A stretch of 28,411 nt of DNA. Origin: a virus. Its lineage: Duplodnaviria > Caudoviricetes. Below are positions 2,486 to 24,232 of this stretch, piece after piece. Location of the stretch: positions 1-28,411 of IMG/VR virus record IMGVR_UViG_3300047272_000070; one strand, given 5' to 3'. The translations under genes and the position numbers were made by a program. How positions within the stretch are numbered: the stretch's first letter is position 1; every line of letters begins with the position of its first letter. The notes beneath the pieces are model-generated. The model was not told the origin of the DNA. It saw only the letters and a list, made by a program, of their open reading frames with translations, and ran no database searches.

Positions 2486-5400
2486 ATGGCGAATTTTACA
2501 AGAAATTTCATAGCTGGCAGAATGAATAAAGTCGTTGATGAACGACTTATTCCTGATGGAGAGTATATAGATGCTCTTAATGTTCGCATGGGTTCTACAG
2601 AAAGATCTGAGATTGGAGTAATTGAAAATACAAAAGGTAATAACAAGCTTACTACAATAAAGTACATTAATGGAACCGCTCTTAGTGCTTCAGCAAAATG
2701 CATAGGAACCATTACTGACAATACAAGCGAGACTATCTATTGGTTTATCCATGACTCTAACTTTGGAGTTGGTGCTACTGGTAAGCTAGACATGATTGTT
2801 TCTTTTAACGTGTACAATAATATACTTACGTACCACGTTATTAGTATCAATGATGGAGGTGGTACAAACACTACGTTGAACTTTGACCCTGAGTATCTCA
2901 TTACTGGGGTAAACATTATAGATGATCTTTTATTTTTTACTGATGATTATAACCCACCTAGGGTTATCAATAGGTTTAAAAATTATCCAGACCCAGTTGC
3001 TAACATAGACCAATTTAGTGCTGAGTCTATTCTTGTTATAAAAAAACCTCCAGTGGAGTCTCCAAGTATTCAGCTTATAAATACTGGAGATGAAGAAAAT
3101 TACCTAGAAGGTAGATACATTTGCTTTGCATATCGATACTGGTATGAGGATGACGAGTACTCTGCTACTTCTCAGTGGTCAGATCCTGCATTCCAGCCAA
3201 AGCCTTTTGACTTCAGTTTAAATAGCTACCTAAATGAGGGTATGAAGAACCAGTTCAATACTGCTATTATAACCTACAATACTGGAGGTCCATTAGTAAA
3301 AGGTATTGATTTGTTGTTCAAAGAGATGGACAATAACACCATCAACGTAATTGAAAAACTAGATAAGTCTGACCTTGGGTTAGTTGACAATACTAACTAT
3401 ACGTTTACGTTTACAAACAGTAAGATATTTACCACATTGGATGAGCGTGAGTTGTTTAGACTTTACGACAACGTACCGTTGCTAGCCAAGGCCCAAACTA
3501 TTATGGGCAATAGGCTTATGTATGGTAACTATGTGGAGGGCTTTGACATGATTGACGATTTTGGTCAGCCAATTCAGTTAGATTATTCCACTTCATTAAT
3601 ATCAGAAGAGGTAGGCAACACAGAAATCATAGACTTCCTTAGCACAGGCACCTATAATTTTGGCTCTCCTCAAACGATCACAGACTCGGTAGTGTACTTA
3701 GACCTTAACGGATTTGAACTCGTTACAGGGGCCTCTATTACTGTCGAGATGTCTCTTGGTCATCAACAGTTTGCAGGTGATACTCCATTCCCTAATCAGA
3801 CCACTGAGGATGTATCTCTCACGTTTTCATTTGTGTTACCTAAGTCTTACAACTCCGTTTATGAGTTGGCAAGTAGTGCAGAGTTTCAGGAGGCCGTAGG
3901 TGTACCTCCGCTATCTCCTGTAGTTGACTCTTGCGATGGGACTACATTCACAGATCAATTCAACTGTGCTCTTCCAACTAACTTAACTAGACCTACACCA
4001 CTTACGCCTTTAACTAAATACCAAAGTGGCATCGGGTCTGCTGGTCAAGGTATTGGTATTATAACCACTCCTGCTAGCCAATTAATTGGGTTGCAGTTGC
4101 TTGCCATGAGATACGTTGACAACACGACTACGCCTACAGTAAGCGTGTACGAGTACTATTCTTATAGTTTCATTGAGGCATTCTATCAGAAGATTAATTC
4201 TCCTAGAAGTTTACATAGCAACAGAGGATATGAGATTGGTATTGTTTACATGGATGACTTTAACAGATCAACAACTGCTTTAGTTAGTTCGAATAATACG
4301 GTTCATGTACCATGCTCAGCATCAGATACTAAGAACTCTATTCAAGTAACTATACCAGTCGCACAACGTGTACCATACTGGGCTACTAGATATAAGTTTG
4401 TTATAAAGCCTGACGAAGAAGGATATGATACCATATTCAGTAATATTTTCTTTAATGACCCACTGACTAATAATGTTTACTTCTTACTTGAAGGAGAGAA
4501 CGCTAGGAAGGTCCAGCAAGGAGATAGACTTATTGTTAAGGCAGATACTAATGGGTCTACCAACAGATGTATCTATACTACTATTCTTGAGAAAGAGGCA
4601 AAACCTGAGGGATTTCTTGAGATCCCTAGCACAGCAGATCCAACGACTAACATATTAGTTCCTTCTGGATTGTACATTAAGATTAATCCAAACAACTTCT
4701 CTGTAGTTAAGAGTCAGGATTCAATTGTTACTCCAGGCACTGTAGATGTTGAGGAAAACAACGGTGGGGATTATCCTATCCTAGAGTATCCAATGAGTGT
4801 GTATAATGAGACTGACGAAATATGGGAGGACATTGACATACCTGCTGGCAGTAGGATAAAGATGAACATTAAGTTCCAGCGTAGAGGTACCGGTAAAGGA
4901 AACCGTAAATGCGGAACTAGAATATATACACTAGAGGAAACTCTTATTGCATCTGCTGATTATGAAAGCATGGATGATTGGTTTAATGGAGACAATGTAC
5001 AAGTAGTTTTAAATGAAGGAGTTAGTGATCTTGGTGCTGGTGAGTGCTCAATTAATAACGTATATATTCCTACTCCGGCAGCGAATAATCAAGACTTAGA
5101 CCCTGAGGTATGTACAAACTTTTACAGGTTCTATAGGTATCCAACTGTTGGAGGAGACCCTAATTCAAACAAGCTTGTTCTATTGATGTCTGGTACAGTT
5201 CGTTGTACTGGTACACTTGCTAAGGAGAAGAGACGTTCTAGTATAACGGCTACGTTTGAGATATTCAAAGCTGATACTACAATTATATTTGAGACTCAGC
5301 CATCTCCTGCTTTGCCTGATATATTCTTTGAGAATGAGTTATCATTCCCTATTGTTAATGGATTCCACACAGGAAATGTGCAGACTCAGACATCTTCACT

Positions 5401-6901
5401 GCCAGCAATTATTGATACAAAATTCTTCAATTGCTTCTGTTATGGTAACGGAGCGGAAAGTTATAAGATACTAGACTCTATTGTTGGTAGGCCACTCGCA
5501 TTAGGTAATAGAGTTACTGCAATTGCTGCTCAAGACTATAAGAGAACGAGACGATTTGCAGATATTACTTACAGTGGTATATACAACTTTGAGTCGAATG
5601 TAAATAAGCTGAATGAGTTTAACCTTGGCTTATCTAACTACAAGTACCTTGAAGTATCATTTGGACCAATCTATATTCTAGATGGTCGTGAGACTGATAT
5701 ACTTGTACTACAGGAGGACAAGATATCTTATGTGCTTTCTAGCAAGAACTTAATATCAGACTCTACTGGAGGAGGTGCTATTGCTTCTGTTCCACAAATA
5801 CTTGGTACACAGATAGCTAGGACTGAAGAGTTTGGTATTAGTTTTCATCCAGAGAGTTATGTGCAGTGGGGGCCTGATAGGTTCTTTACTGACGTTAAGC
5901 GTGGAGCTGTGCTCAATCTAAAGGGAGACCAACTTATTGTAATCTCCGACATGGGAATGAGATCTTGGTTTAGAGATGAGTTCATTCAGTCTTTCAATAC
6001 TCAGAAGCTTGGTGCTTATGACCCGTATCTAAATGAATACGTTCTAACTACTAACTCTCAGCAACTACCTAGGCCACTAGAGTGCTTGTCTTGTGGTATT
6101 GGACAGACGTTCACTATACCAACTGGTAACACACAAACATACTGCGTTGACTTAGGTCAGCCTGTTGGAATGGTTACTATACCATACACTGTGCCTGTTG
6201 GTTCTACAGCTAATTTTACCATATCTGTAACTTATGATGGCACTACTGTAACCTCTGGTCTTGTTTCTGTATCTGGAAGTATACAGTTTGAAAAGAATAA
6301 AAACAATGTAAATGTAGCTACTGTAACTATAGTGGCTAATAATCCTCTTGAAATTACCGTAACTCCTAGCTGTCCTGCTCAAGAGACTTTAACTATTGTT
6401 AGTGTGACATTGACTAGTGTAGTTGATGCAGGGAAAAATATTCATAATCAATACAGATATACTGCTGGTGCTTATGTATCTCCATTGCAATCTACATTTG
6501 TTACTTTTGCTACGGATGATTCAAGCCCTGTGGTATCTCAATATCAGTTAGTAACTGGTGCTCAAGGATTTGGAAGTATACCAACAGATGGGGCTAGCTT
6601 AAGGATGACATCTAATAAGATCGTTCCAGATACATTTGATTTTGTATTAGGGCAGGATAAGTTTAGGTATCTTCGCAGCAACACGTTGTATCCAAACACT
6701 TCAGTAGGAATTGCAAACTTACTTGCAGCCTCCACATTAGTGGCTCCAATAACAGGTTCCGCTGGAGTTTATTCAGGATCATTCATTGTTCCAAACACTG
6801 GACAGTATCTTTATTTAATTTGGGATTACAGAAATTCATTACCACTAGAGCTTTGCTATTCTGCGACAACTACTCAGGATGCATGCTGCGGATGCGATTA
6901 A
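2486..6901 (+). CDS. Tail stabilisation/muzzle protein (P22 gp10-like role), N-terminal part with C-terminal beta-rich extension
   Basis: 1471 aa; N-terminal 'GRMNKVVDERLIPDGEYIDALNVR', 'DDLLFFTDDYNPPRVIN', 'NRLMYGNYVEG', 'EEFGISFHPES', 'FFTDVKRGAVL', 'LGAYDPYLNEYVLT', as seen in crAss-like stabilisation proteins. Confidence 0.75.
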   Translation: MANFTRNFIAGRMNKVVDERLIPDGEYIDALNVRMGSTERSEIGVIENTKGNNKLTTIKYINGTALSASAKCIGTITDNTSETIYWFIHDSNFGVGATGKLDMIVSFNVYNNILTYHVISINDGGGTNTTLNFDPEYLITGVNIIDDLLFFTDDYNPPRVINRFKNYPDPVANIDQFSAESILVIKKPPVESPSIQLINTGDEENYLEGRYICFAYRYWYEDDEYSATSQWSDPAFQPKPFDFSLNSYLNEGMKNQFNTAIITYNTGGPLVKGIDLLFKEMDNNTINVIEKLDKSDLGLVDNTNYTFTFTNSKIFTTLDERELFRLYDNVPLLAKAQTIMGNRLMYGNYVEGFDMIDDFGQPIQLDYSTSLISEEVGNTEIIDFLSTGTYNFGSPQTITDSVVYLDLNGFELVTGASITVEMSLGHQQFAGDTPFPNQTTEDVSLTFSFVLPKSYNSVYELASSAEFQEAVGVPPLSPVVDSCDGTTFTDQFNCALPTNLTRPTPLTPLTKYQSGIGSAGQGIGIITTPASQLIGLQLLAMRYVDNTTTPTVSVYEYYSYSFIEAFYQKINSPRSLHSNRGYEIGIVYMDDFNRSTTALVSSNNTVHVPCSASDTKNSIQVTIPVAQRVPYWATRYKFVIKPDEEGYDTIFSNIFFNDPLTNNVYFLLEGENARKVQQGDRLIVKADTNGSTNRCIYTTILEKEAKPEGFLEIPSTADPTTNILVPSGLYIKINPNNFSVVKSQDSIVTPGTVDVEENNGGDYPILEYPMSVYNETDEIWEDIDIPAGSRIKMNIKFQRRGTGKGNRKCGTRIYTLEETLIASADYESMDDWFNGDNVQVVLNEGVSDLGAGECSINNVYIPTPAANNQDLDPEVCTNFYRFYRYPTVGGDPNSNKLVLLMSGTVRCTGTLAKEKRRSSITATFEIFKADTTIIFETQPSPALPDIFFENELSFPIVNGFHTGNVQTQTSSLPAIIDTKFFNCFCYGNGAESYKILDSIVGRPLALGNRVTAIAAQDYKRTRRFADITYSGIYNFESNVNKLNEFNLGLSNYKYLEVSFGPIYILDGRETDILVLQEDKISYVLSSKNLISDSTGGGAIASVPQILGTQIARTEEFGISFHPESYVQWGPDRFFTDVKRGAVLNLKGDQLIVISDMGMRSWFRDEFIQSFNTQKLGAYDPYLNEYVLTTNSQQLPRPLECLSCGIGQTFTIPTGNTQTYCVDLGQPVGMVTIPYTVPVGSTANFTISVTYDGTTVTSGLVSVSGSIQFEKNKNNVNVATVTIVANNPLEITVTPSCPAQETLTIVSVTLTSVVDAGKNIHNQYRYTAGAYVSPLQSTFVTFATDDSSPVVSQYQLVTGAQGFGSIPTDGASLRMTSNKIVPDTFDFVLGQDKFRYLRSNTLYPNTSVGIANLLAASTLVAPITGSAGVYSGSFIVPNTGQYLYLIWDYRNSLPLELCYSATTTQDACCGCD

Positions 6902-8931: not shown

Positions 8932-9342
8932 ATGGCAATATCAATTAGACCAATTACAGCAAGTGATTACGATAATATCCTATTGAAATGGTGGAATGAC
9001 TGGGAGTGGGTGGCACCTCATAAAGATTTCTTACCGGCAGATGGAGAAGGTGGACTAATTGTTTTTGATGGTGACGAACCAGTATGTGCTGGTTACATGT
9101 ACACCACGAACTCAAAGGTTGCATGGGTTGACTGGATAATATCTAGTAAGACCTACAGAAAGAAACCAACAAGAAAGGAGTGTATAGATTTATTGATCTA
9201 CACGCTTACTAGTATTTGCAAAAGCACTGACCATAAGTACGTCTATGCTTTGATAAAGAACAGAAACCTTATAGGTACATACCAAAAATTTGGGTACATA
9301 CAAGGAGATTCATACACAGGTGAAATGATAAAAGTATTATAA
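8932..9342 (+). CDS. GNAT-fold acetyltransferase-like protein
   Basis: 136 aa; 'ISIRPITASDY' start, central beta strands and a 'LIGTYQKFGY' GNAT motif-B-like end. Its position before the ejection proteins is typical of podoviruses. Confidence 0.6.
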   Translation: MAISIRPITASDYDNILLKWWNDWEWVAPHKDFLPADGEGGLIVFDGDEPVCAGYMYTTNSKVAWVDWIISSKTYRKKPTRKECIDLLIYTLTSICKSTDHKYVYALIKNRNLIGTYQKFGYIQGDSYTGEMIKVL

Positions 9343-9343
9343 C

Positions 9344-10189
9344 ATGGCCCCATTTACTACAATCGCAGCAGGAGTCGGACTAGCTACCTCTTTAGGTACA
9401 GCAGGTGCATCTTTTGGCAATGCAAGAAAAATGATGAGAGAGAATAAGAAGGCTAACGAAGCAGCCGCCAGATCTCTTGCTGAAGCAAAAAAGAAAATGA
9501 ATGTCAACTATTATGAACAACTTGGTATACAGACCGGTGTTTATGAGACAGCTGCTAGACAAGCAAAAAGCACAGCTGCTGATTTGATTAGGGCAGCACA
9601 GCAGGGTGAAGGCCGTGGCGTAGGAGCTGCTGCTGGACAAATATATGCTGCTGGATTAGAAGGACAAGAGAATGTAAGGGCTAGCATGGCTGAGGATCTT
9701 ATGGGTCTAGATAAACTAGTTGCTGCTGAGGATTCTAGAATTGCCGGTGCATTAGCAGGTCTTGATTTGCAAGCGGCTGAAGGTGCACAACTTGCTGCTC
9801 GTGATGCTCAAAGAGCTGCGGCATCTGCAACAACAGAAGGAATGCAGTCACTACAAAGTGGTGCTCAACAACTTTATGAAGCAGCTCCATTGTTTGATAA
9901 GTCTCAAGGTATGAGACAGTTTGAAAAACTCAAGGGGTTAGCAGCAAAGGAAGGACTTAGTCAGGAGCAACTTCAAAATAGATTGGTAGAATTTGGAAAA
10001 CTTAACCCACAGTTTGGACAATTGTCTGGGGTTGGATACACCGCTACAGGATTAGATGCTCAAGGCAAACCTATTCAAGGACTAATGACTCCTTTTGCAT
10101 TTCAAGATTACTATGCTACTCAGGGCAAGAAGTTTGGTAAGTCATTGCTTGATCCGTTTAGTTTATTTTTACAGAATTATCCTAAATAA
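9344..10189 (+). CDS. Probable internal virion/ejection protein
   Basis: 281 aa; hydrophobic Gly/Ala N-terminus followed by Ala/Gln-rich coiled coil. Confidence 0.6.
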   Translation: MAPFTTIAAGVGLATSLGTAGASFGNARKMMRENKKANEAAARSLAEAKKKMNVNYYEQLGIQTGVYETAARQAKSTAADLIRAAQQGEGRGVGAAAGQIYAAGLEGQENVRASMAEDLMGLDKLVAAEDSRIAGALAGLDLQAAEGAQLAARDAQRAAASATTEGMQSLQSGAQQLYEAAPLFDKSQGMRQFEKLKGLAAKEGLSQEQLQNRLVEFGKLNPQFGQLSGVGYTATGLDAQGKPIQGLMTPFAFQDYYATQGKKFGKSLLDPFSLFLQNYPK

Positions 10190-10191
10190 TA

Positions 10192-11919
10192 ATGGCAACA
10201 TATTATAAATACGCTGAGAGGCAGGCTGATAGTTTCGTAAACTGGGCAGAGATTGGTAAGGATATTACCGACATGCTCAAGACCGAAACAAATCTTCGAG
10301 AACAAAAGAAGGCGGCCATTGATAAGGCCTCAAGAGATTTCGGAGAACAGCTAGCAAATGCCCCTACTGGAGAGCATACTGGTATAAATGCGTGGACACT
10401 AAACTATGCAAGTGATGCACAGCAGGCTAGACTACTTCAGGACAGACTATTAAAGTCTGGTGGCCTTAGCGTGAAGGATTACACCATCATGCGTCAAAAC
10501 ATAAATGATGGTACCGCTCAGTTGTTTGCCCTTTCTAAGGAATACCAAGAGGAGTTCAAGGTAAAGATGGAGCGTATGAAAAGTGCTGACCCAGCAACTA
10601 GATCTCAGGAGATGGAAACATTTCTTATGGAGACAGTTGAAGGTTTTGCTAACTTCTCGAAGTCTAAGCCTTTGATTAATCCTACTGACTTTACTGTTAG
10701 TGTTGGTATCATGGAGTCAGACCCTAACAACCAAGGGGTATTAAGACTTACTGATCAGGTAGAGACTGTTAACTATTTACGAAACAGAATCAAGGGTAAG
10801 TATGATTACTTTGATTCAAATGCAGCGACAGATACCATAGCTAAAAGTCTTGGTCAATATATTAAAGCAGAAAAGGATGCTGATGCTTTGAATGGTATTA
10901 TTACCACCACTGCTGATGCTACAGCTAGACCGGGATTTAGTAAGTACTTAGAGGACAAAGTGAAATCATATTTAGAGAATCCATACAACGTGAGTTCTGT
11001 ACTTACCGATGACATTGGTGGATTTACTTTTTCTTTTACTGATAAGTCTGGAGGAAATGTTATATTTTTAGAGCGAGATCCACAGTCTGGAATGGTCAAG
11101 CCTGTATTTACTGATGATCAGAAAAAAGCGGCATCTGACTTCCTGATTGGAGAATCAAAACAGAAGATTGATTACGAACAGAAATTGAATCCATACACTC
11201 TTCAGCAACGTCAAGTAGTAGCAAGCAGTGGAGGCGGAGGAGGAAGAACTCAGGCCAATGCTGTTTCATTGTGGATGGATGTTTATTCTGCTGCTAACTT
11301 AACTGACAAGACCACAGCAAAAAGTGCATTGCTTTCTACCGAGGCAGCAAAAGATAATGGTGTGATTGATATTAAGTTTGCTAAAGATGAAGCAGGTAAT
11401 CAAACAATTCAATTTGTAAATTCAGATCCAGCATTTACAACAAACCCAGTTATATTTAGATATGCTAATGGTACAGCAATATCTCCAGATGCATGGGCAG
11501 CTATTGGGGCTGAGGTTACAGGAGAGACTGATAAGAGAAAATTACAGCAAGCCGCTTCTAATAAAACATTCTTTGACATAGGTGACTGGTCTACACAAAT
11601 TGGCACTACATATCAAGGAGAGGAAGACTTCATACCAAAAGCTACTGAGGCATTGAATGCAGGCATAACTTCTGGATTATTTGCTCAAAGCTCAGCGAAG
11701 ACTGCTTCTTCCCTTCAGGCTATATTGGGTAAGGCTGGGTTTACTGTAACAGATACTGGGGGTTCTACTGGTAACTCAATGGAAGTATTAGCTCCTGGAG
11801 AAACAGTTCCTTTATTAATCAATAGTAGAGAACCAGCAGATAGACAAAAACTTATTGATTGGGTAACTGCAAAGTTAACTCAGTCTAGAGCACAGAAATT
11901 AGCAGCACCAGTTAGTTAA
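10192..11919 (+). CDS. Probable internal virion/ejection protein
   Basis: 575 aa; helical N-terminal half and a GGGGG linker. Lies between the small ejection-like protein and the giant protein. Confidence 0.55.
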   Translation: MATYYKYAERQADSFVNWAEIGKDITDMLKTETNLREQKKAAIDKASRDFGEQLANAPTGEHTGINAWTLNYASDAQQARLLQDRLLKSGGLSVKDYTIMRQNINDGTAQLFALSKEYQEEFKVKMERMKSADPATRSQEMETFLMETVEGFANFSKSKPLINPTDFTVSVGIMESDPNNQGVLRLTDQVETVNYLRNRIKGKYDYFDSNAATDTIAKSLGQYIKAEKDADALNGIITTTADATARPGFSKYLEDKVKSYLENPYNVSSVLTDDIGGFTFSFTDKSGGNVIFLERDPQSGMVKPVFTDDQKKAASDFLIGESKQKIDYEQKLNPYTLQQRQVVASSGGGGGRTQANAVSLWMDVYSAANLTDKTTAKSALLSTEAAKDNGVIDIKFAKDEAGNQTIQFVNSDPAFTTNPVIFRYANGTAISPDAWAAIGAEVTGETDKRKLQQAASNKTFFDIGDWSTQIGTTYQGEEDFIPKATEALNAGITSGLFAQSSAKTASSLQAILGKAGFTVTDTGGSTGNSMEVLAPGETVPLLINSREPADRQKLIDWVTAKLTQSRAQKLAAPVS

Positions 11920-11929
11920 ATAATAGAAA

Positions 11930-14900
11930 ATGGACGAGAAATATTTACAAGACCTGTACGGAGTAGTATTAAAAAATGATCCTTCTTACCGGCAGAAAGT
12001 TTCTTTTGATTTATTCAGAAGCAAGATGCAGGATCAGGACTATGCAGGTAGATTAACTGATTGGGTTTCTAGTGTAGACAGTACATTTAAGTCTAAGTCT
12101 TCACAGCCTGTAGTCCCTTTTAAAAAAAAAGAAGATACGGTATCGTCTTCGGTACTTGGTTCTTCGGCATCTGGGAGATTTGACCCCAGAACTGGTAAGT
12201 TAAATCAAGAGCAGCCACAGTTTCAAAGACCTCAGGACAGAGACTTCAGTGGCCTTGCTGTTGATGTAGATCCACAACTAATAACTAAGAAGCCTAGGGA
12301 AGATAGACCTGTGGTTTCTCAGGATGTTACTGCTGTAGCTAGGCTACCTAAGACTCAAACTCTTGAGGTAGAAGAGAATAAGAAGTACATAAAAGAGACT
12401 GAGAGACTAAAGAATGAGGCTCAGAATCTAGAGAAACTTAAGGAAGCTGAACAGCAAGATCTATTAAAACAGCAAAATGTTCTTGCGATTCAGGACCCAG
12501 AGTTTGGATCTCTTATTACACAGATTAATAAAGACCTCATAAACAATGAGGAGAAAGATGTAACTGACTTTTTAAATAAGCAGTTCTCAAAGTATGGTTT
12601 CCACTTTGAGTCTACTGGTGTTGGCGATGCTGTAATAGCACGAACAATTGATGGTAAAGAATTTATTGAGATTGACCTAGACCCATTCCTTGAGTCAACA
12701 GAGATTGAGGAATCAGAGAAGCTTAGAAAGTTTATCTCTAAAAATGCTCAGCCTGTATACAACTACAAAGACGAGGACTACATTACCAAGGCAGTAAGGG
12801 CTCAAAGCCTACGTGACATTGGTATGAAGAACGAAGATGGTACTGAGTCTACTGTGAAATTCACTTCATTTGAACAGGATGGTAAGCACTTTGTAATACC
12901 AACTTTGTTCCCTAAGAATACACTTAACTATACCTCAGATAAAAAAGACTGGCTTGAGTTCCCATTTGAGCAAGCCCTAAAGGAGGCAAGGTCTCGTGGT
13001 GAAGTGTTTGAGTTTGACAACGAGGCAGATGCTAAGAGATTCGCTGAAGGAGACTGGAAGAATGTAAATGCATTTGACTTAGAAGGACAAAAGCTATACA
13101 AGGAGAAAGGTCTTGACTACTATACAGAGAAGAAGAAGTTTGAGAACTACACTGCATTGCAGGATGAGGTTGAGTTGCTAGATAGGATTCTTGATAGAGA
13201 CTATATTGCTCCAGAAGAAAAGTTAAAGTACCCTCAATATTTCGCTAATGATGGTAGACCACTTTACAGCGAGAAGGAGATTGAGTCAAGGCTAGACAAA
13301 ACTGTAAAGCAGAAGGACCAATTATTGGAGCAGGTATTCGATGTTGAATTCCTAGGGATAAACGATGGGCCAGTACAGAAGACACGTGAAGAGTTTGACA
13401 TAGTACTTAGCAAGAAGCAGAAAGAGATTGAGGGTCAGGCTATCAAGCAGAACAATCAGGTGAATACTGAGCTTCAGCAGGTTAACCTTATGTCCATGAA
13501 CTTGTATGGTGTACCTATTGAGAAACTTTACACGGTAGTACCAAAGACCACTGAGGATGAGAAGACAATAAACGATCTAGTCCTTAAGACCAAGGAGTTA
13601 ATTGCTCTGAGTAAGGATGCTGCTAACAAGTTTCAGTTAGCCAATACCTACTACGATGCAAAGTGGAACAAGGCTGCCACTGAGGAGTACGAGGAGAACC
13701 TATCAGGATTCAACACAGCATTAGCGGATGCATGGCAAAATGGAAAGGCTGCTGAGCAAATATTGTTAGCTACTCTTGGCATTAAAGATGTAGATTCTAC
13801 TGCCGACAGAAAAGATATTGCAATGAAAATTGCAGAGGCATCTAGTAATCTTAGTGGTAAGCAGTCACGTGTACTTACAAGGCTAAACCTATCTAGAGAT
13901 GGTGAGTTCTTTAAGACATTCATGTCTGATCCATTGGAGGCAATGTCCACATTTGCTGCTTCTTCATTTACTCAGATACTTCCATACGGCAGTTATCTTA
14001 TCCCATCAATTGTAGGGTCAAGTGTTGCGGCAGGGGCTGCCATAGGCGGATCAGCAGCAGGTGCACCGGGTGCACTAGCAGGTGCTACCACTGGTTTAGG
14101 CTATGGTGTTAGGTCAGGTATGGCCGCATCATTCTTTGCTCTTGAATATACTAATGCCATACTTGATGTAATGAAGGAGAAGGGATATAATATCACCGAC
14201 CCACTTCAGGTTGAGAAAGGATTGATGGACGAATCAGTATGGTCTGAGGGTAGTGAGCGTGGTGTTAAGAGAGGTATACCTATTGCCCTTGTAGATTACT
14301 TGGGGGCTGGCCTAACAGGTAAAGTATTTAAGGTAAGTAAGATTGCTCCAATAGCAACAAGAGTTGGTGCACTTACTGCTGAACGTCTTGTAGTCGATCC
14401 AGCATTTGAGATGGGAGGAGAACTTGCTGCTCAGGTGTCAGCAGGTCAAGAGATTAACATGAAGGAGATTGCATACGAAGGTATGGGTGGTGTTGGTACC
14501 AATACATCTATGATGGGTATGAACATGTACATAGAATCTCGTAACCAGACTAGTGCACAGTTGGCTCTGGAGCTTACAGATATCAACGCTATGGCATCTC
14601 AAAGAGTTAGCGATGAGAGGATATCTAACTGGGCTAACAACATGCAGAAGCTTGGTAAGATTGATGCTGATGTTAACCAGAGAATCCAGCAGAATGTTGG
14701 TCTAAGAAGAGAGGCCAGAGATCTATTGTCAGTTGGTGCGGTAAGCAGACTTACTGGTAATACATCAAAGTCTGAGGCCAGAGTGATGGAGCTTCTTGCT
14801 GCTAGACAGGAGTTGACTTCTACTCAAAACAGAAGAGAGGTTAACTCAGATAAGATTAAGGCTATCAATCAGGAGCTAGCTGAATTGTCCGAGACCAAGA

Positions 14901-17900
14901 AGGTAAAGCCTAAAGAGGAGCAAGTAAACCTTGACTTAATCTTGGGTACAAAAAGAGAGGGTGTGTCTGTGTACCGCATTGGTGGTAAGACCATGACAAA
15001 GGAGCAGTTCCTGAAGGAGATTGAGAAGATGAGTACTCGTAGTTTGCTTAGGTCTAAGATCGTAGTAGACAACGATGATGAAACACAAATAGAAATACTA
15101 AACAAACAACTAGATGCCATTCAAAAGCAAACAGCAGGTCAAGTACCTGTACAGCCAGGAACCAGAGATCGCCAAGAGATGGCGCAAGGAGAACCCCAAG
15201 CAGAACCTCAAGGCATTGCCCAAGAAGGTCAAGTCCAAGAAGTAACTCAGCCTATTTTAAATAAGGACATAGAGGTAAAAGATAGTGAAGGGCAGAAAGG
15301 ATTAGTTCCTATTACTGAATTAGAAGAATTTATAGGTGAAGATAGATTAGGTGAAGCACAGATGCCTACATCTAGAGCTACTATAGATAGGTTAAAAGAA
15401 GATATCTCTAAGAATGGTTTTAAGGAACCTATTGTGCTTGTTTATGACAGGTCTAGTGGAGAAGGTGAGGCCACAATTATAGAAGGCAATCATAGAATTA
15501 TAGCTGCCAAAGAATTAGGACTTAAAGAGATACCTGTAATATTCGAGAAGGGAACAATTAGAAGCGATGAAAGCAGAGCTAAGGATAATATGTTTCCAAT
15601 TAAAAGAAAAACTGTTGGTAGTATAGATGATAGATTTGGTGTTAGAGGTTCTGATTTAGGATTAACAGTTAGACAACCTGTAGATTCAGACTTTGTAAAA
15701 GAAGGTCAAGTAGAAGTATCAACTGTATCTCCTGCTGTATCTCCAGCTGTATCTCCTACTCAGCAGTTAGACTTAGAAGGAGAGGTATCCTTACTTGAGC
15801 AGTTACTTACAGGTAATCAGCAACCAGAGCCAAGAGCAAGACTTTCAGCTGGAGTAGAAGCTCAAGATACAAGAACCAATGAAGCTGATGTTGTGTCAGA
15901 GATAAATCAAATGGCTGTTCAATCTCCAGAAGAAGCTGCTTTTGAAGGGGCTAAACCAACTGGTCAGGTTGAGGCTGGCCAAGTGGTTTCTGATAATCCA
16001 ACACCAGATAATATTAAAAAGCCATTCTTAAAAAGAATACTTAATAAGTTAGGATTTACAAAAGAAAGTCAGCTATACAGAAGGATAGAAGAATTTTCTA
16101 ACATTCCAATGATGATAGGAATATCTGATTCACTTGGAAGTGGAACTTATAAGGATGCTGCTGGTAATGATATGGAAATTGATGGAGGTTTGATGTTCAA
16201 CTTCTTTAGAAATCCTGGACTTGCATGGGCTAATGTTGATAAGAAGTTAGCTCAAAATATTGTTAACCAAGCAAAGCAAGTATACACTGCAAACAAAGAA
16301 CTGTTTGATAGATTATGGAAGGAAGGTGCACTACCTGATGGTCATATCCCATATTCAATTGTAAGGATGGGTGATGATGCCTTGTATTCAAATGAAGCAA
16401 TATTCAGATACCTATCTCCTTGGATTAAAACACTTCCTTTAGAAAATAGAAAGGCTGCTCTTGAAGTTTATAAGCAAGATTTAATGAAAGCCGCAAAGGG
16501 GCAATCTTCTAGTTCTTGGATATTTGATCTTCAGGATAATATTGACAATGGAAATATAACTGACTTCAAAGGAATTATAGATTATCTTGAGAGCCTTAAG
16601 AATTCAGATGTACCTGTAGCAACAAAAGATGCTATACAGTCATTAGAGAATAAGCTAAACAAAATAAAAGGAGAGGAAAAGTTCTCTGACTCTATTGAAG
16701 CTATTGATGAGATACTTTCAAAAAAGGCCCCTATAAGAATACTTAACTTTATAGAGGAGAAAAATATCACGACAGTAGATGGTCTTTTTGATGCAATTGT
16801 AGATGATGCTATAAGCCGAGCTAAGGGTGAACCTAGTATGCTTAGCTTACCAGTTAGAGCCATAATATCCACTAAGCTATTATCTTTAACTCCTCTTAAA
16901 AAAGATGCTCCAACAACTGAGTTTAATAAAGCTCTGCTTGGAAGAGAAAAGAATCCTCTATGGAACGATGCTAAAAAGCTAACTCTTCCATTCATTAAGG
17001 ATCAAATAAGTGAACCTGCTATGCTAAAGGCTAGGCAGGGAGACATCGTTGCTGTGATGGGTATAGATGTACGTGAAGGTTCATCAGGTGTAGAGAAGGC
17101 TCAGCATAATAATTATGGGTATGGACCTAAAGGTATGCTTATATCTTACATCAGTAATCCAACAAGAGCATTTGATGTATTTGCAGAGCTACAAGCAAAA
17201 GCACCTCGCCTACTTAAGAAAAACAAAAGTGGTATCTATCCTACAGCTGACTCTATTGTTAGACAAGCTGGTGGTACAGCATTTATAGATGTTGCTTTTA
17301 GAGGTGCTAAGATTAAACCACAAGGGCTGACTGACATTGATATTATTGTTGGAAAACTTAGAACTGCATTCCCCGATGTATCTGTATTTGATACTAAGGA
17401 AGAGTTTGATAATTTCTTACAACAAGAAGGAATAAGATCAAGAGCAGATGCCAATGGAAATGTAATCTATGGTATCACAAAAGATGGAAAGATATTTATA
17501 AACCCTGATAACTTATCATTAAGAACTCCTATACACGAGTTCGGACATATATGGGTTGATTACTTAAAATCAAAAGCATCTGGTAATAAAGGGACTGCAT
17601 TACTAAATCGTGGTCTTCAGCTTGTTGATGGTACACCAGAATACAAAGAGGCTTTAGCTAAGTATGGTCAGAGAGACATTGCCCTAGAAGAAGCATTGGT
17701 TGAGTTGATTGCAACTAAAGGGGAGACCATAGTTAATGCATCAAAGAAGAGTGAGTTTAAAAACTGGCTTAATGCATTCTTTAAGTACATCAAGGAAAAG
17801 TTTGTTACAACAAAAGAGCTATTCAAAGATAAAGACTTTGTATCTAGAATAGAGAAAATGACCTTAGATGAATTTATTAATTCATCCCTTGCTGATTTAT

Positions 17901-20900
17901 TTGGAATGGCTCAGGTCAATAGAAAGTTCAAGGCATCTGAAGCAATGGCAGCATCTAGAGCTAGGCTTGGAGAAAGTGATATTAATAACATTGTCCAGGT
18001 TGGACTTGCTAATGGAATTTCTGAGACAGCTATTCGTGAACTACTTAATAAAATAGGCTTTACTCAAGAAGCCATTGATGCTGCATTAGGTAAGGAACCA
18101 AAGGCTCCAGAGATTGAGGTACGTGAAGAAAGAGCACAGCCAGCCAGAGGTAAGTCTGAGATAGACAAGATTATATCTAAGGCAATCAAGGATGCAGGTG
18201 CTGATTTGAATGCTAAGCGAAAGGCTATTGCTGATGCAGTAAAAGGTATGTCGAAGAATGGTGGTAAGATTAATGCCAAGACTGTTGAAGCAATCATCAA
18301 GAGGGCGGAGATGGTAAACCTAAACAATCAGACTGCTGTAGATAAATTCATCTCCTATGCTGGTAAGATATTTAAAGATGCTGAGTACGGTAAGAAACTT
18401 AACGATGCAAAGGCTAAGAGAAAAACGATAAGAAGAGGAGCCAAGAGTAAAGAGGTTGCTTCAAACCTTCGTGACCTTGCCAAGCTGTTCTCAGTTATTG
18501 ATCCATCGATGGTGGAGGATATCGATAAGTACAATCAGATTGCTGATAAAATATCTGAAGCAGTAGTGGGTTCAAGTTTAAGAGGCAAGGATGGCACATT
18601 CGCTAAGATAATAAAAACAGAAGGTCTTACTGATTACATTAACGAGAATATAGAGAAGCAGCAAAAGCAAATTCTAAAAGACAAGATTGCCAGAATGAGT
18701 GAGGTTGTTGGCAAGAACTTGACTGAGGAAGAATACTTTGAAGTACTGGAATCCAGAAACAAGGATGCTAAAGTTAGCAAGGAACTGAAGTCTGCTAAGG
18801 TAAAAGAGAATGCAATAAAAGAAGTTAACATGTACAAGAGTATCGTAAGAGAGATTCTTGACAAAGATGTTAACCCTATTTCTGGAGAAGATGTAACTGT
18901 GAGTAATGCCAAGAAAAAGGTAGTTGAGAAATTCATGAGCATGGACTTGAACTTGCTTGATGTCAATGAGCTTCTTGATATGTTTGACTCACTACAAAAC
19001 TTTATTGAGAATGGGTCCACTGCAAAGATGGAATCTATTTACAGTTCTTATGTAGGCAAAGTCAATGCTACCAAAGCAAAGGGAATTGTTTCTCAAAAGA
19101 TTAAGAAGTACTTCAATGAAACTGTAGGCGAGTTCTTACTTGAGCAGTTCACATCTTTGGACCTTCTATTCGAAAGAATGTTCAAGGGATTTGAGAGAGG
19201 TGGAAAAATGATGTCTCTTGCTGGTGTGTCTGCCATAAAGAAAGGGAAGTCAACAGCTAAGGCGTTGAGTGATGCCATCGTTGATCAATACTTCAATAAG
19301 TTCTACAAGCTAACTCCAAACGGTCAGGCATTCAATACCATGTACAATACAGTTGAGCGTGGTATGCTTGCGTACATGATGCGAAATGTTATTGGTACTG
19401 AAGAGCAGGTGCAGGCTGAGTTTGATAGAAGGAAGCAACTAATTGTTGATTCAATTAAAGTCCTTGAGAAGGGTGACAAGAACCATAGACAGTTGTCTGT
19501 TGAGTATGCTAAGGCTTTCAACAAGATACTTCAAGACTCTAACACCTCAGAAGAAGTTGTTAATAAGGCTGCCCAAATCAACGTAGATGCTGTTAAGTTC
19601 TGGCAAACACAATGGGGTGATAAGTATGATCAACTCGCTGACTTGTCTGAAAACATATACAACCAGACTCTAGGTAAGGATGTGAACTATACTCCAGACC
19701 GTGTGTCTAGTATAGAAAAAGAGTCTGTATCATCTGAGACAGGTGATGAGATGGACTCACACTTGATGACGTTCCATGCCAACAACAAGACTCCTTACCA
19801 GAGAAAGACAGGTGTATTGATGACTCCTGTTATGGATGATACTCTTCCTAAGAAGTCTTACATAAACTTGTCTTTTGATTCTAACAATGCCAACTCAATG
19901 TATGATGCATTGGTCGACTTGAATACTGCTGGCCCTATACGACAGGTGTCTGCGTTCTTTAACTCTCCTGAGTTTGATCAGATTGTTCCTGACCTTACTG
20001 ACAGAAAGATTCTAAGATCAAGAGTAAACTTGTTTATTCGAAATATTCGAAACAAGAATCCTTATGAGAACGATAGTTTTGCTAAGGCGATTAGAGCACT
20101 CCAGAATGTTGCGGCATTGGGTACCGGTCAAATACTTGCAGGCCCTACTCAGATACCAAAGCAAACTATCCCAGTTATTATAAATACCATCATCAATGCT
20201 GGTGGCATAGACTTGGCTGCTCCTTTCAATGAGGATAAGAACAACTTCATGAACAGGTCTGGTTACTCAATAGCCTACCGTAGTGCGGCAAGCCAGAACC
20301 AAATCGCTACGCTTAATAAGATTTCTACTAGAGCGGAGACTGGTCCTGTAGGTAAAGTTGGTGATGCAATCTTTGCATTGAACGACCTTCAGTTGAAGTA
20401 CTTCTTACAGAAGCCAGATGCCTACGTTGCACGTGCATCTTGGATGTCATACTATGAGAAGTCTTTAAAGAAGCAAGGTATTGACCCTAAGACTATAGAC
20501 TACGCTACTCATGAAGTGAATGATACGGCTGCTGATTACGCTCAAAGAATGGTGGACAGACAGCAGAACATATCTGACATGGACTTGGCTGGTAAGTTTA
20601 TATCATCTAAGAACCCTGCTAACCAACTTGTAAACAAGTTGTTGTTGCCGTTCGCAAGCTTTAGAATCAACCAGTCTGCAAGACTTGGATCCGACTGGGC
20701 TACGCTAACTTCTAAGGTATCAACCAAGGAAGACAAGGCGATTGCTGCGAGATCTTTGGGTGGATTCTTTAGTGAACTAGTAACATTCAGAGCAGTATCT
20801 ATTGGTGTTACCACATTGCTTAGCTCGATGGCCTTGTCTATTGCAGGTAAGAGAGATGACGAAGAGGACCGTGAAAGAAAGAGGTCTACAGTTATGAAAG

Positions 20901-21580
20901 GTGCAACCACCTCTACGATTGTGGATACATTCTCCTTACTTCCAGCATTAGATCCCATCTTCCAATCTGGTGTAGCATTCGGACTAGATGTTGTTCAGGA
21001 CTTTTTTAAGGTATCAGAGAAGAACAGAATTCCTTTCTACGATGCAAAAGAAAAAGACTTTATTGAGCAAGCAGGTACTCTTGGAATCAGTATTGGTAAG
21101 GCTAAGCAGTTCTTTGAGTTGGTATCTCTTGCCTATACTGGACAATACACAGACGAGTACAGCGGTAAGACTAAGTACATTAAGTCCAGAGATGCAAATT
21201 CACTGAAGATGTTTGTGGTTCCTTTCTTATTGTCTCACCTTGGCATATTGCCTGGAGCACCTGAGATTGGTACAATGACTAGAATAATAATGAAGGACGT
21301 TAAGAAGGATTCTTCTACTACTCCTGGAGGGTACAAGGCTGACGAGATGACCATGGAGGATATGAAAAAGTATTTCCCCGAGGAGTATGAGAACCAATAC
21401 GGAGAAGGTAGTCCATACCGTGAGGCTAAGGAACTTGAAAAAGAAGCCAACGAAGAAAAGAAAAAGGAGGAAGAGGAATTGAAAGAGGCAATGTATGGTA
21501 AGCCTGCATCCAAGGGACGAGGAAAGGGTAGAGGACAATCAACTAGAGGGTCATCTAGAAGAAGAGAGGGAAGGCGTTAA
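11930..21580 (+). CDS. Giant polyvalent (probably virion-ejected) protein with ParB/Srx-like and zincin metallopeptidase domains
   Basis: 3216 aa. Gly/Ala hydrophobic segment near 13990-14140. ParB-like 'LKEDISKNGFKEPIVL...IIEGNHRIIAAKELGLKEIPV' near 15390-15540. 'TPIHEFGHIW...EEALVELI' metallopeptidase near 17525-17710. Long helical C-terminal region and a basic RG-rich tail. Confidence 0.8.
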   Translation: MDEKYLQDLYGVVLKNDPSYRQKVSFDLFRSKMQDQDYAGRLTDWVSSVDSTFKSKSSQPVVPFKKKEDTVSSSVLGSSASGRFDPRTGKLNQEQPQFQRPQDRDFSGLAVDVDPQLITKKPREDRPVVSQDVTAVARLPKTQTLEVEENKKYIKETERLKNEAQNLEKLKEAEQQDLLKQQNVLAIQDPEFGSLITQINKDLINNEEKDVTDFLNKQFSKYGFHFESTGVGDAVIARTIDGKEFIEIDLDPFLESTEIEESEKLRKFISKNAQPVYNYKDEDYITKAVRAQSLRDIGMKNEDGTESTVKFTSFEQDGKHFVIPTLFPKNTLNYTSDKKDWLEFPFEQALKEARSRGEVFEFDNEADAKRFAEGDWKNVNAFDLEGQKLYKEKGLDYYTEKKKFENYTALQDEVELLDRILDRDYIAPEEKLKYPQYFANDGRPLYSEKEIESRLDKTVKQKDQLLEQVFDVEFLGINDGPVQKTREEFDIVLSKKQKEIEGQAIKQNNQVNTELQQVNLMSMNLYGVPIEKLYTVVPKTTEDEKTINDLVLKTKELIALSKDAANKFQLANTYYDAKWNKAATEEYEENLSGFNTALADAWQNGKAAEQILLATLGIKDVDSTADRKDIAMKIAEASSNLSGKQSRVLTRLNLSRDGEFFKTFMSDPLEAMSTFAASSFTQILPYGSYLIPSIVGSSVAAGAAIGGSAAGAPGALAGATTGLGYGVRSGMAASFFALEYTNAILDVMKEKGYNITDPLQVEKGLMDESVWSEGSERGVKRGIPIALVDYLGAGLTGKVFKVSKIAPIATRVGALTAERLVVDPAFEMGGELAAQVSAGQEINMKEIAYEGMGGVGTNTSMMGMNMYIESRNQTSAQLALELTDINAMASQRVSDERISNWANNMQKLGKIDADVNQRIQQNVGLRREARDLLSVGAVSRLTGNTSKSEARVMELLAARQELTSTQNRREVNSDKIKAINQELAELSETKKVKPKEEQVNLDLILGTKREGVSVYRIGGKTMTKEQFLKEIEKMSTRSLLRSKIVVDNDDETQIEILNKQLDAIQKQTAGQVPVQPGTRDRQEMAQGEPQAEPQGIAQEGQVQEVTQPILNKDIEVKDSEGQKGLVPITELEEFIGEDRLGEAQMPTSRATIDRLKEDISKNGFKEPIVLVYDRSSGEGEATIIEGNHRIIAAKELGLKEIPVIFEKGTIRSDESRAKDNMFPIKRKTVGSIDDRFGVRGSDLGLTVRQPVDSDFVKEGQVEVSTVSPAVSPAVSPTQQLDLEGEVSLLEQLLTGNQQPEPRARLSAGVEAQDTRTNEADVVSEINQMAVQSPEEAAFEGAKPTGQVEAGQVVSDNPTPDNIKKPFLKRILNKLGFTKESQLYRRIEEFSNIPMMIGISDSLGSGTYKDAAGNDMEIDGGLMFNFFRNPGLAWANVDKKLAQNIVNQAKQVYTANKELFDRLWKEGALPDGHIPYSIVRMGDDALYSNEAIFRYLSPWIKTLPLENRKAALEVYKQDLMKAAKGQSSSSWIFDLQDNIDNGNITDFKGIIDYLESLKNSDVPVATKDAIQSLENKLNKIKGEEKFSDSIEAIDEILSKKAPIRILNFIEEKNITTVDGLFDAIVDDAISRAKGEPSMLSLPVRAIISTKLLSLTPLKKDAPTTEFNKALLGREKNPLWNDAKKLTLPFIKDQISEPAMLKARQGDIVAVMGIDVREGSSGVEKAQHNNYGYGPKGMLISYISNPTRAFDVFAELQAKAPRLLKKNKSGIYPTADSIVRQAGGTAFIDVAFRGAKIKPQGLTDIDIIVGKLRTAFPDVSVFDTKEEFDNFLQQEGIRSRADANGNVIYGITKDGKIFINPDNLSLRTPIHEFGHIWVDYLKSKASGNKGTALLNRGLQLVDGTPEYKEALAKYGQRDIALEEALVELIATKGETIVNASKKSEFKNWLNAFFKYIKEKFVTTKELFKDKDFVSRIEKMTLDEFINSSLADLFGMAQVNRKFKASEAMAASRARLGESDINNIVQVGLANGISETAIRELLNKIGFTQEAIDAALGKEPKAPEIEVREERAQPARGKSEIDKIISKAIKDAGADLNAKRKAIADAVKGMSKNGGKINAKTVEAIIKRAEMVNLNNQTAVDKFISYAGKIFKDAEYGKKLNDAKAKRKTIRRGAKSKEVASNLRDLAKLFSVIDPSMVEDIDKYNQIADKISEAVVGSSLRGKDGTFAKIIKTEGLTDYINENIEKQQKQILKDKIARMSEVVGKNLTEEEYFEVLESRNKDAKVSKELKSAKVKENAIKEVNMYKSIVREILDKDVNPISGEDVTVSNAKKKVVEKFMSMDLNLLDVNELLDMFDSLQNFIENGSTAKMESIYSSYVGKVNATKAKGIVSQKIKKYFNETVGEFLLEQFTSLDLLFERMFKGFERGGKMMSLAGVSAIKKGKSTAKALSDAIVDQYFNKFYKLTPNGQAFNTMYNTVERGMLAYMMRNVIGTEEQVQAEFDRRKQLIVDSIKVLEKGDKNHRQLSVEYAKAFNKILQDSNTSEEVVNKAAQINVDAVKFWQTQWGDKYDQLADLSENIYNQTLGKDVNYTPDRVSSIEKESVSSETGDEMDSHLMTFHANNKTPYQRKTGVLMTPVMDDTLPKKSYINLSFDSNNANSMYDALVDLNTAGPIRQVSAFFNSPEFDQIVPDLTDRKILRSRVNLFIRNIRNKNPYENDSFAKAIRALQNVAALGTGQILAGPTQIPKQTIPVIINTIINAGGIDLAAPFNEDKNNFMNRSGYSIAYRSAASQNQIATLNKISTRAETGPVGKVGDAIFALNDLQLKYFLQKPDAYVARASWMSYYEKSLKKQGIDPKTIDYATHEVNDTAADYAQRMVDRQQNISDMDLAGKFISSKNPANQLVNKLLLPFASFRINQSARLGSDWATLTSKVSTKEDKAIAARSLGGFFSELVTFRAVSIGVTTLLSSMALSIAGKRDDEEDRERKRSTVMKGATTSTIVDTFSLLPALDPIFQSGVAFGLDVVQDFFKVSEKNRIPFYDAKEKDFIEQAGTLGISIGKAKQFFELVSLAYTGQYTDEYSGKTKYIKSRDANSLKMFVVPFLLSHLGILPGAPEIGTMTRIIMKDVKKDSSTTPGGYKADEMTMEDMKKYFPEEYENQYGEGSPYREAKELEKEANEEKKKEEEELKEAMYGKPASKGRGKGRGQSTRGSSRRREGRR
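12118..12183 (+). promoter_or_regulatory. Candidate -1 frameshift/transcriptional slippage site (T4A9 plus hairpin) opening a short -1-frame tail
   Basis: In-frame A AAA AAA heptamer, then hairpin GTATCG-TCTT-CGGTAC at 12140-12155. The -1 frame reads RRYGIVFGTWFFGIWEI-stop (TGA 12181-12183). Confidence 0.55.
15114..15245 (+). CDS. Nested 43-aa basic protein in the +1 frame of the giant gene (MPFKS-type small phage protein)
   Basis: ATG..TAA encoding MPFKSKQQVKYLYSQEPEIAKRWRKENPKQNLKALPKKVKSKK. 36 of 43 codons end in G/C and none in T. A-rich leader. Confidence 0.75.
   Translation: MPFKSKQQVKYLYSQEPEIAKRWRKENPKQNLKALPKKVKSKK
15222..15711 (+). repeat. 13-bp direct repeats flanking the ParB-like domain
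   Basis: AAGAAGGTCAAGT at 15222-15234 and 15699-15711, 477 nt (159 codons) apart. Confidence 0.7.
15723..15758 (+). repeat. 3 x 12-bp tandem repeat encoding a (T/A)VSP linker
   Basis: CTGTATCTCCTG / CTGTATCTCCAG / CTGTATCTCCTA. Confidence 0.9.
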
Positions 21581-23769: not shown

Positions 23770-23878
23770 TAGTCAGGACAGGATTCGAACCTGTATTTAT
23801 ACCACCATACAACTCTCTTTATGGTTGGGCTGTACACACCCTTCGTTGTATGTGCGTTACCAATTCCGCCACCTGACT
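23770..23878 (-). ncRNA. tRNA-like RNA A (Leu-like scaffold, expanded anticodon domain)
   Basis: Acceptor AGTCAGG/CCTGACT, D arm GCG-GAATTGGTAA-CGC, T arm ACAGG-TTCGAAT-CCTGT. An 8-bp CATACAAC/GTTGTATG stem closes 31 nt in place of a 7-nt loop. Confidence 0.75.
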
Positions 23879-24085: not shown

Positions 24086-24232
24086 TAGTCAGGACAGGAT
24101 TCGAACCTGTATGGTAGGCTTATCTAGAAAGCCGTTTGAAGTACCTATTTCAAAGGTATTACGGAGCTTTACACCGACTGATTACGGACACCAACCTTTG
24201 ATTTTAGCGTTTACCAATTCCGCCACCTGACT
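24086..24232 (-). ncRNA. tRNA-like RNA C (same scaffold as A, different and larger insert)
   Basis: Acceptor and T arms identical to RNA A; D loop differs by one A. An 8-bp TCAAAGGT/ACCTTTGA stem closes 36 nt. Variable-arm hairpin GGCTT-TCTAGAT-AAGCC. Confidence 0.75.

Follow-up and report, generated by a model that had tools for sequence, protein, structure and literature searches.

The locus examined here poses the question of whether a phage gene of 3216 codons also specifies a second, very short protein, reached through a run of adenines near the start of the gene. The gene (11930–21580, + strand) lies in IMGVR_UViG_3300047272_000070, a linear virus record of 28,411 nt that is 47% complete and that is referred to below, over its whole length, as the window. 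The initial annotation described a slippery T4A9 stretch in it, and the sequence is indeed CCT TTT AAA AAA AAA GAA, with T4 at 12118–12121 and A9 at 12122–12130 (+ strand; codons 65–67). The run contains an in-phase A_AAA_AAA (12124–12130) and is the sole run of at least eight A's on the + strand of the window. Among the lysine codons of the giant gene, AAG outnumbers AAA about two to one (200 vs 101), and of its four KKK triplets only the one at the slip site is written entirely with AAA.

Past the run, the −1 frame encodes a short hidden tail. This frame is shut upstream by TAA at 12121–12123 and has no ATG, GTG, or TTG start; it continues for 17 codons to a TGA at 12181–12183 (12130–12183 with the stop, + strand), reads RRYGIVFGTWFFGIWEI, and has its core, YGxxFGxWFFG, at 12136–12171. 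A shift within the run would fuse these 17 residues to the first 67 residues of the giant (11930–12130, + strand), a small helical domain followed by a linker with a KKK end, and would give an 84-residue product, as the initial annotation had read it. The third (+1) frame past the run is also open, for 23 codons (12132–12203, + strand); its translation is basic and rich in Leu and Arg, and it is free of stops across the A-run homologs.

The giant gene is the last of a virion operon that occupies bases 1–21580 and consists of structural genes, a muzzle-like tail protein, and then genes of 136, 281, 575, and 3216 aa, the last in the position of a third ejection or cargo protein. The muzzle-like protein (2486–6901, + strand; Pfam crAss_MUZ, E 1e-5, below the cut-off; PHROG 14478) serves as a marker of the phage group. 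It is 32–35% identical to its counterparts in cultured Flavobacteriia podophages, whose gene order is the same; these are Cellulophaga phages phi13:2, phi18:3, phi19:3, phi46:3, phi38:1, and Calle_1, the Flavobacterium elemo phages, Gundel_1, and Panino. In a one-gene muzzle tree, this 47%-complete record groups with members of Pachyviridae, Pervagoviridae, and Elemovirus (SH-aLRT 94). Among the three genes immediately upstream of the giant (8932–11919, + strand), those of 136 and 575 aa provided independent anchors for homolog collection. The 136-aa gene (8932–9342) stands ahead of the ejection genes, and a relative's copy is annotated as an acetyltransferase-like subunit.

From its gene position and the crassvirus model (described in part of PMC10172136), we infer that the giant is an ejection (cargo) protein, and the record annotation of its phi18:3 counterpart states that the protein was detected in virions by MS/MS. 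The giant carries a ParB-like domain at residues 1149–1206 (15374–15547, + strand; Pfam PF02195, E 1.6e-4 with the whole protein and 7.5e-6 on part of it) and a HExxH motif, HEFGH (17534–17548, + strand), of the type that polyvalent proteins have in their metallopeptidase domains; it is a motif alone, with no profile match. Of the features of polyvalent proteins, the giant shows only this weak ParB match and the HExxH motif. The giants of relatives contain Kinase-PolyVal, ART-PolyVal, and LPD23; PolyVal domains were present in all three that were scanned, two of them below the cut-off. A motif scan of the 3216-aa giant revealed no RNA-polymerase DxDxD motif, and no relative of the giant with a solved structure was found.

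The first line of evidence that the run matters is its conservation. The initial annotation had named breakage of the run in homologs, or loss of the −1 peptide, as observations that would tell against a slip site; the outcome was the reverse. Homologs were sampled blind to the site, as the best 80 of 491 matches to the 136-aa upstream gene, of which 66 reach the giant gene and 58 are distinct. In this sample, a run of A9–A11 is present at giant codons 59–93 in 55 of the 58 genes (A9 in 17, A10 in 36, and A11 in 2), and gene starts hold 56 runs of at least nine A's in 26 kb, vs 4 in 567 kb elsewhere. At the protein level, KKK is found near the start of 84 of 93 giant homologs, and a protein regular expression matched 50 of the 93. 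Four close relatives retain both A9 and the tail.

The second line of evidence is that the hidden peptide is retained as well, while the first 60 residues of the giants share a median identity of just 25% (66% for the 136-aa marker gene). In the same sample of the best 80 of 491 matches, the motif YG[IF]x[FI]GxW[FW][FI]G scores at least 8 of 10 in the −1 frame of 51 of the 55 A-run genes, and it never scores above 6 of 10 in frames 0 and +1; since the score was set post hoc, after the tails had been viewed, its weight rests on the comparison of frames and not on the absolute value. A strict count of W[FWY]FG gives 27 of 58 genes in the −1 frame and 0 in each of the other two. Across 46 distinct homologous blocks, nucleotide entropies at the three −1 codon positions are 0.83, 0.50, and 1.28; i.e., the second position is the most conserved and the third the least. 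The last Gly of the tail is present in all 46 blocks and is spelled by four different codons. In relative L004, six substitutions alter 1 of 17 tail residues vs 4 residues of the zero frame. A looser pattern run against GTDB genomes gave 19 matches, about ten of which are giant-gene starts on MAG contigs, the others being ordinary genes or unclear.

It should be noted that conservation of the site has exceptions, which count against it. The run is missing from 3 of the 58 genes (L169, L180, and L201, the first of which holds a decaying motif); 4 of the 55 A-run genes (L172, L173, L196, and L202) keep A10 but follow it with a different aromatic −1 tail; three near-identical proteins (P0025–P0027) lack KKK; and the cultured phages, which have A9–A10 at codons 33–66, carry aromatic, Gly-rich tails that score 5–7 of 10. 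Nevertheless, the comparative sequence evidence leads us to conclude that the A9 run is a real and widely conserved recoding site that precedes a conserved hidden reading frame, and the giant gene is likely to make, in addition, an unannotated mini-protein, predicted to be of 84 residues. Some relatives (L168, at giant codons 61–145; L174; L175; and L225, Panino) have two copies of the tail motif in the −1 frame, which suggests a block duplication.

The third line of evidence comes from loci that combine the same peptide with another signal. A pattern specifying the peptide only, with no A run in it, matched 119 loci (100 distinct), 68 of which have A8–A13 upstream; the spacer between run and tail motif varies from 2 to 68 nt and is always in frame. 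Among the 31 loci with upstream sequence but without A8–A13, G_GGA_AAN is found in phase in 22 and out of phase in none, compared with one match per 4833 control codons. When the search was extended to any spacing of 41–68 nt, 70 loci were recovered, all 70 with G_GGA_AAG in phase, and the −1 frame was open in all 60 distinct ones. G_GGA_AAG is also the heptamer of lambda gpG/gpGT. Nine of the 31 loci (e.g., L022, L060, L094, and L102) have the motif but neither G_GGA_AAN nor a long A run, and several of them carry just A_AAG-type tetramers or other heptamers.

A strong stem begins 3–10 nt past the heptamer in 46 of 60 sites vs 6 of 60 controls. In one structural subfamily of 26 of the 60 loci, chosen by regular expression, a selection that favors the result, 22 loci were aligned, 4 with different spacing being left out; the 22 share, 7 nt downstream of the heptamer, an H-type pseudoknot in which stem 2 is 100% paired and three pairs are changed on both sides, and its covariation score was matched by none of 500 shuffles. 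Minimum-energy folding did not separate heptamer sites from A-run sites (z −0.7 and −1.0), whereas the stem score did, and a scan of six heptamer loci returned no Rfam family. By every sequence criterion, then, the heptamer class is read here as using a ribosomal −1 signal.

The heptamer phages are more distant relatives of the window's phage. A muzzle homolog was found in all 30 heptamer-class records tested, and in the 10 that were checked it lies 7–13 kb upstream on the same strand; the 136-aa marker is present in 6 of the 30 and is thus not usable for a joint tree. In a quick, unrooted muzzle tree, a single branch (SH-aLRT 94) parts 7 A-run phages from 30 heptamer phages, so a single switch of signal suffices. 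The two classes differ in three respects, in that the A-run class has no run shorter than nine, lacks a stem, and keeps its third frame open; because class coincides with clade, this contrast amounts to one evolutionary comparison.

For the A-run sites, we lean towards slippage of RNA polymerase over a ribosomal shift. The polymerase would slip on A9, the majority of transcripts encoding the 3216-aa virion protein, those with one extra A the 84-aa isoform with its aromatic, Gly-rich tail, and those that lose one A or gain two a third product of roughly 90 aa. None of the 55 A-run genes (from the best 80 of 491 matches) has a run shorter than nine, and a tandem ribosomal shift needs just seven. 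Passages of PMC5009743 give nine A/T as the length for efficient slippage in vivo, and describe Thermus thermophilus dnaX transcripts with one or several extra A's.

The state of the third frame bears on the same point. As a null, each −1 peptide was held fixed and its codons were resampled, zero-frame preferences lying outside the null. The A-run loci (n = 96) contain 5 stops in the +1 frame vs 56 expected; after de-replication, the values are 4 vs 33 for 52 loci of <70% identity and 1 vs 10 for 18 loci of <60% identity. No such depletion is seen at the heptamer sites (87 observed vs 88 expected). A stop-free third frame at the A-run sites suggests that both other frames are translated, as if the polymerase adds and drops A's. 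The simplest guess from the sequences is that the third frame is kept open for a functional product that would be basic and rich in Leu and Arg.

Our leaning towards polymerase slippage is a guarded one on account of rival signals and the mixed evidence of the tails described above. The in-phase A_AAA_AAA is a valid ribosomal heptamer, a ribosomal −1 or −2 slip would enter both frames too, and the E. coli polymerase, according to part of PMC6260861, is far less prone to slippage than that of T7 and slips preferentially on T runs. A less probable but serious rival is that the shift, by −1 and occasionally by −2, is made by the ribosome on the AAA lysine codons of the run, giving the same products with no need of an RNA structure. 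This would agree with the in-phase heptamer, with the position of the run's end, which for runs of at least seven coincides with a codon boundary at 66 of the 73 pattern loci, and with the clear ribosomal signal of the relatives, in phase in 70 of 70 and with a stem 2 that holds three compensatory pairs. Against it stand the absence of runs shorter than nine in the 55 A-run genes and the A-site codon, which is AAA here vs AAG in 18 of the 22 heptamer-class sites. Moreover, no stimulator is apparent at the A-run sites, strong stems following 11 of 49 sites and 11 of 49 controls. Ribosome sliding in vitro, as reported in part of PMC4363877, requires A11 and yields little product at A9 and A10; the A9 considered here falls short of the minimum of eleven, and A11 occurs in 2 of the 55 A-run genes.

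The initial annotation had also drawn a hairpin at 12139–12156 (+ strand) as part of the signal. The hairpin is foldable here, with z-scores of −0.74 for 12136–12190 and −2.3 for 12131–12200, but it is not a conserved stimulator: among 46 distinct homologous blocks, a single one has all six of its pairs, and most have three. A stimulatory role for this hairpin was rejected on these grounds, its folding being no better than chance.

Run-length variation in public records raises the further idea that the run is a phase-variation switch at the DNA level, replication slips generating sub-populations with the mini-protein in frame. In the records of phi13:2, phi18:3, phi19:3, and phi46:3 (L137, L219, L220, and L221) and of Panino (L225), the run is one A short and the annotated giant is split or truncated. 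In an independent phi18:3-like contig (L350), the run is A10 and the giant is a single intact ORF, which points to sequencing error in these five records, whose giant-gene splits the A run seems to explain. The notion that in the four Baltivirus records (phi13:2, phi18:3, phi19:3, and phi46:3) the giant depends on frameshifting to be made at all was dropped on the evidence of this contig; four IMG/VR matches to the Baltivirus records are the same isolates. The giant of phi46:3 has a second break besides the run. Opposite or other shifts occur in 2 of 82 pattern loci (L017 and L114), which have the tail in frame, and in small database proteins ending in the −1 tail (P0094–P0096, P0098, and P0105) or the +1 tail (P0097 and P0099); contigs of the L017/L114 type may be either sequencing errors or real variants. 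These variants, together with an extra A in one low-depth contig of a close strain, are what a switch would lead one to expect. We nevertheless consider a switch very unlikely: the giant is out of frame at the run in none of 66 genes (from the best 80 of 491 matches), the variants are of the kind usual for homopolymer sequencing error, as the A10 of the phi18:3-like contig vs A9 in four GenBank records illustrates, and such a switch would be unworkable for the pseudoknot class.

Similarly improbable is the view that a nucleic-acid element or the giant's acidic linker is what is conserved and that the −1 peptide is a shadow never made, since, although silent changes in 41 close block pairs are just modestly in excess in the −1 frame (58 vs 41 in frame 0) and C-ending codons are partly due to the Ser/Thr/Pro-rich zero frame, a shadow does not fit the third-position wobble of the −1 codons, a spacer that varies from 2 to 68 nt yet holds frame, two unrelated slip signals leading to one peptide, and the decay of the motif where the run is broken (L169).

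What the mini-protein would look like can be judged in part from a natural in-frame mini ORF of 98 aa (L017). AlphaFold predicts four helices, with pLDDT of 78–86 at residues 1–60; the tail has pLDDT <50, linker and tail being unmodelled. A PDB search with this mini ORF returned no fold match, and its Atlas matches were all below 0.8. The tail pattern, Y-G-I-x-F-G-x-W-F-F-G-F, is symmetric around a central Gly-x, and from this pattern the tail is probably a short β-hairpin. The initial annotation had called the tail membrane-anchor-like, and its last 15 residues are hydrophobic (GRAVY 1.17). The idea of a spanning helix, in contrast, was abandoned: the core comprises 12 residues, which appears too short for crossing a membrane, and has Arg or Lys at its middle in 20 of 46 distinct blocks.

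A fixed tail on a variable N-terminal domain probably means that the tail binds a conserved partner. The N-terminal domain, common to both products, would bind the giant or a neighboring ejection protein, the tail would dock on the conserved partner as the giant is loaded or ejected, and the slip rate would set the ratio of mini-protein to giant. In this working model, the mini-protein might be an adaptor that helps the giant to be loaded or ejected, a role to which we give a little less than even credence; a small packaged component and a peripheral membrane anchor are alternative candidates. More tentative still is the general picture that the sequences could support: in a large group of muzzle-tailed podophages from aquatic settings, the gene of the giant would also specify a conserved mini-protein required for loading or ejection of the giant, and in one lineage, including all cultured members examined, an A run acting through polymerase slippage would have replaced the heptamer and pseudoknot and brought with it a third product, for three functional proteins per gene.

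The closest known parallel is dnaX, whose tau and gamma products arise by a ribosomal −1 shift in E. coli and by polymerase slippage on a 9-nt run in T. thermophilus (as set out in part of PMC5009743). As proposed here, a long frame-0 product is accompanied by a short recoded one, which related lineages reach through a ribosomal signal in some cases and a 9-nt homopolymer in others. In T. thermophilus dnaX, according to the same passages, stop codons close both other frames within a short distance and the short form is simply truncated, whereas the present site has a conserved 17-residue tail, both other frames open, and a location 2% into a 3216-aa virion protein.

The initial annotation had pointed to lambda G/GT. 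That analogy holds for a pair of products that share their N-terminus and come from an operon for virion assembly (described in part of PMC5009743, which also names G_GGA_AAG, the heptamer used by the heptamer class, as highly shift-prone) but not further: lambda gpG and gpGT act as chaperones in long-tailed phages without being part of the virion, and shifting yields the longer of the two, whereas here the gene belongs to a podovirus-type ejection (cargo) module, the predicted shifted product is the short one, and the balance of evidence at A-run sites favors polymerase slippage. Judged by gene order and product sizes, the lambda layout, a small gene between the major tail and tape-measure genes, does not apply here.

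For another podovirus, Alteromonas virus vB_AspP-H4/4, a −1 frameshift has been proposed at the 5′ terminus of the gene for an internal virion protein (genes 39/40; part of PMC5658483). There, the short form is a frame-0 endolysin, the shift would yield the virion protein, no aromatic tail is involved, and the case is one of prediction alone. Polyvalent proteins (PMC5512222) and crassvirus cargo proteins (PMC10172136) resemble the giant in size, probable packaging, ParB-like and HExxH features, and a muzzle-type module upstream. The word "frameshift" is absent from the main texts of PMC5512222 (polyvalent proteins), PMC10172136 (crassvirus structure), PMC8776804 (flavophage taxonomy), and PMC13288928 (phi38:1 proteomics), and a literature search, conducted mostly outside subscription papers, found no paper on the slip site. 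Recoding of this kind is known; the notable features here are, in our opinion, the two interchangeable signals and the possible third product.

If the proposal is correct, a missing protein would be added to the particle or assembly pathway of widespread Bacteroidota phages, and a clue would be gained to how cargo proteins of several thousand residues are loaded and ejected. It would also be a second natural case, after dnaX, in which one product is reached by ribosomal frameshifting or by polymerase slippage, depending on the lineage. The cultured phages phi38:1, Calle_1, and Gundel_1 and the elemo phages carry the site, which makes RNA and peptide work direct.

Two further features of the window deserve mention. 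A T9 run at 779–787 lies just past the first ORF, in the gap ahead of the ring-protein genes, a terminator-like position. On the − strand, two tRNA-like elements (23770–23878 and 24086–24232) have near-identical acceptor, D, and T arms, with inserts of 48 and 77 nt replacing the anticodon arm; they score 46.3 and 37.5 bits against the Rfam tRNA family, ARAGORN reports none, and the longer one folds with a z-score of −2.9.
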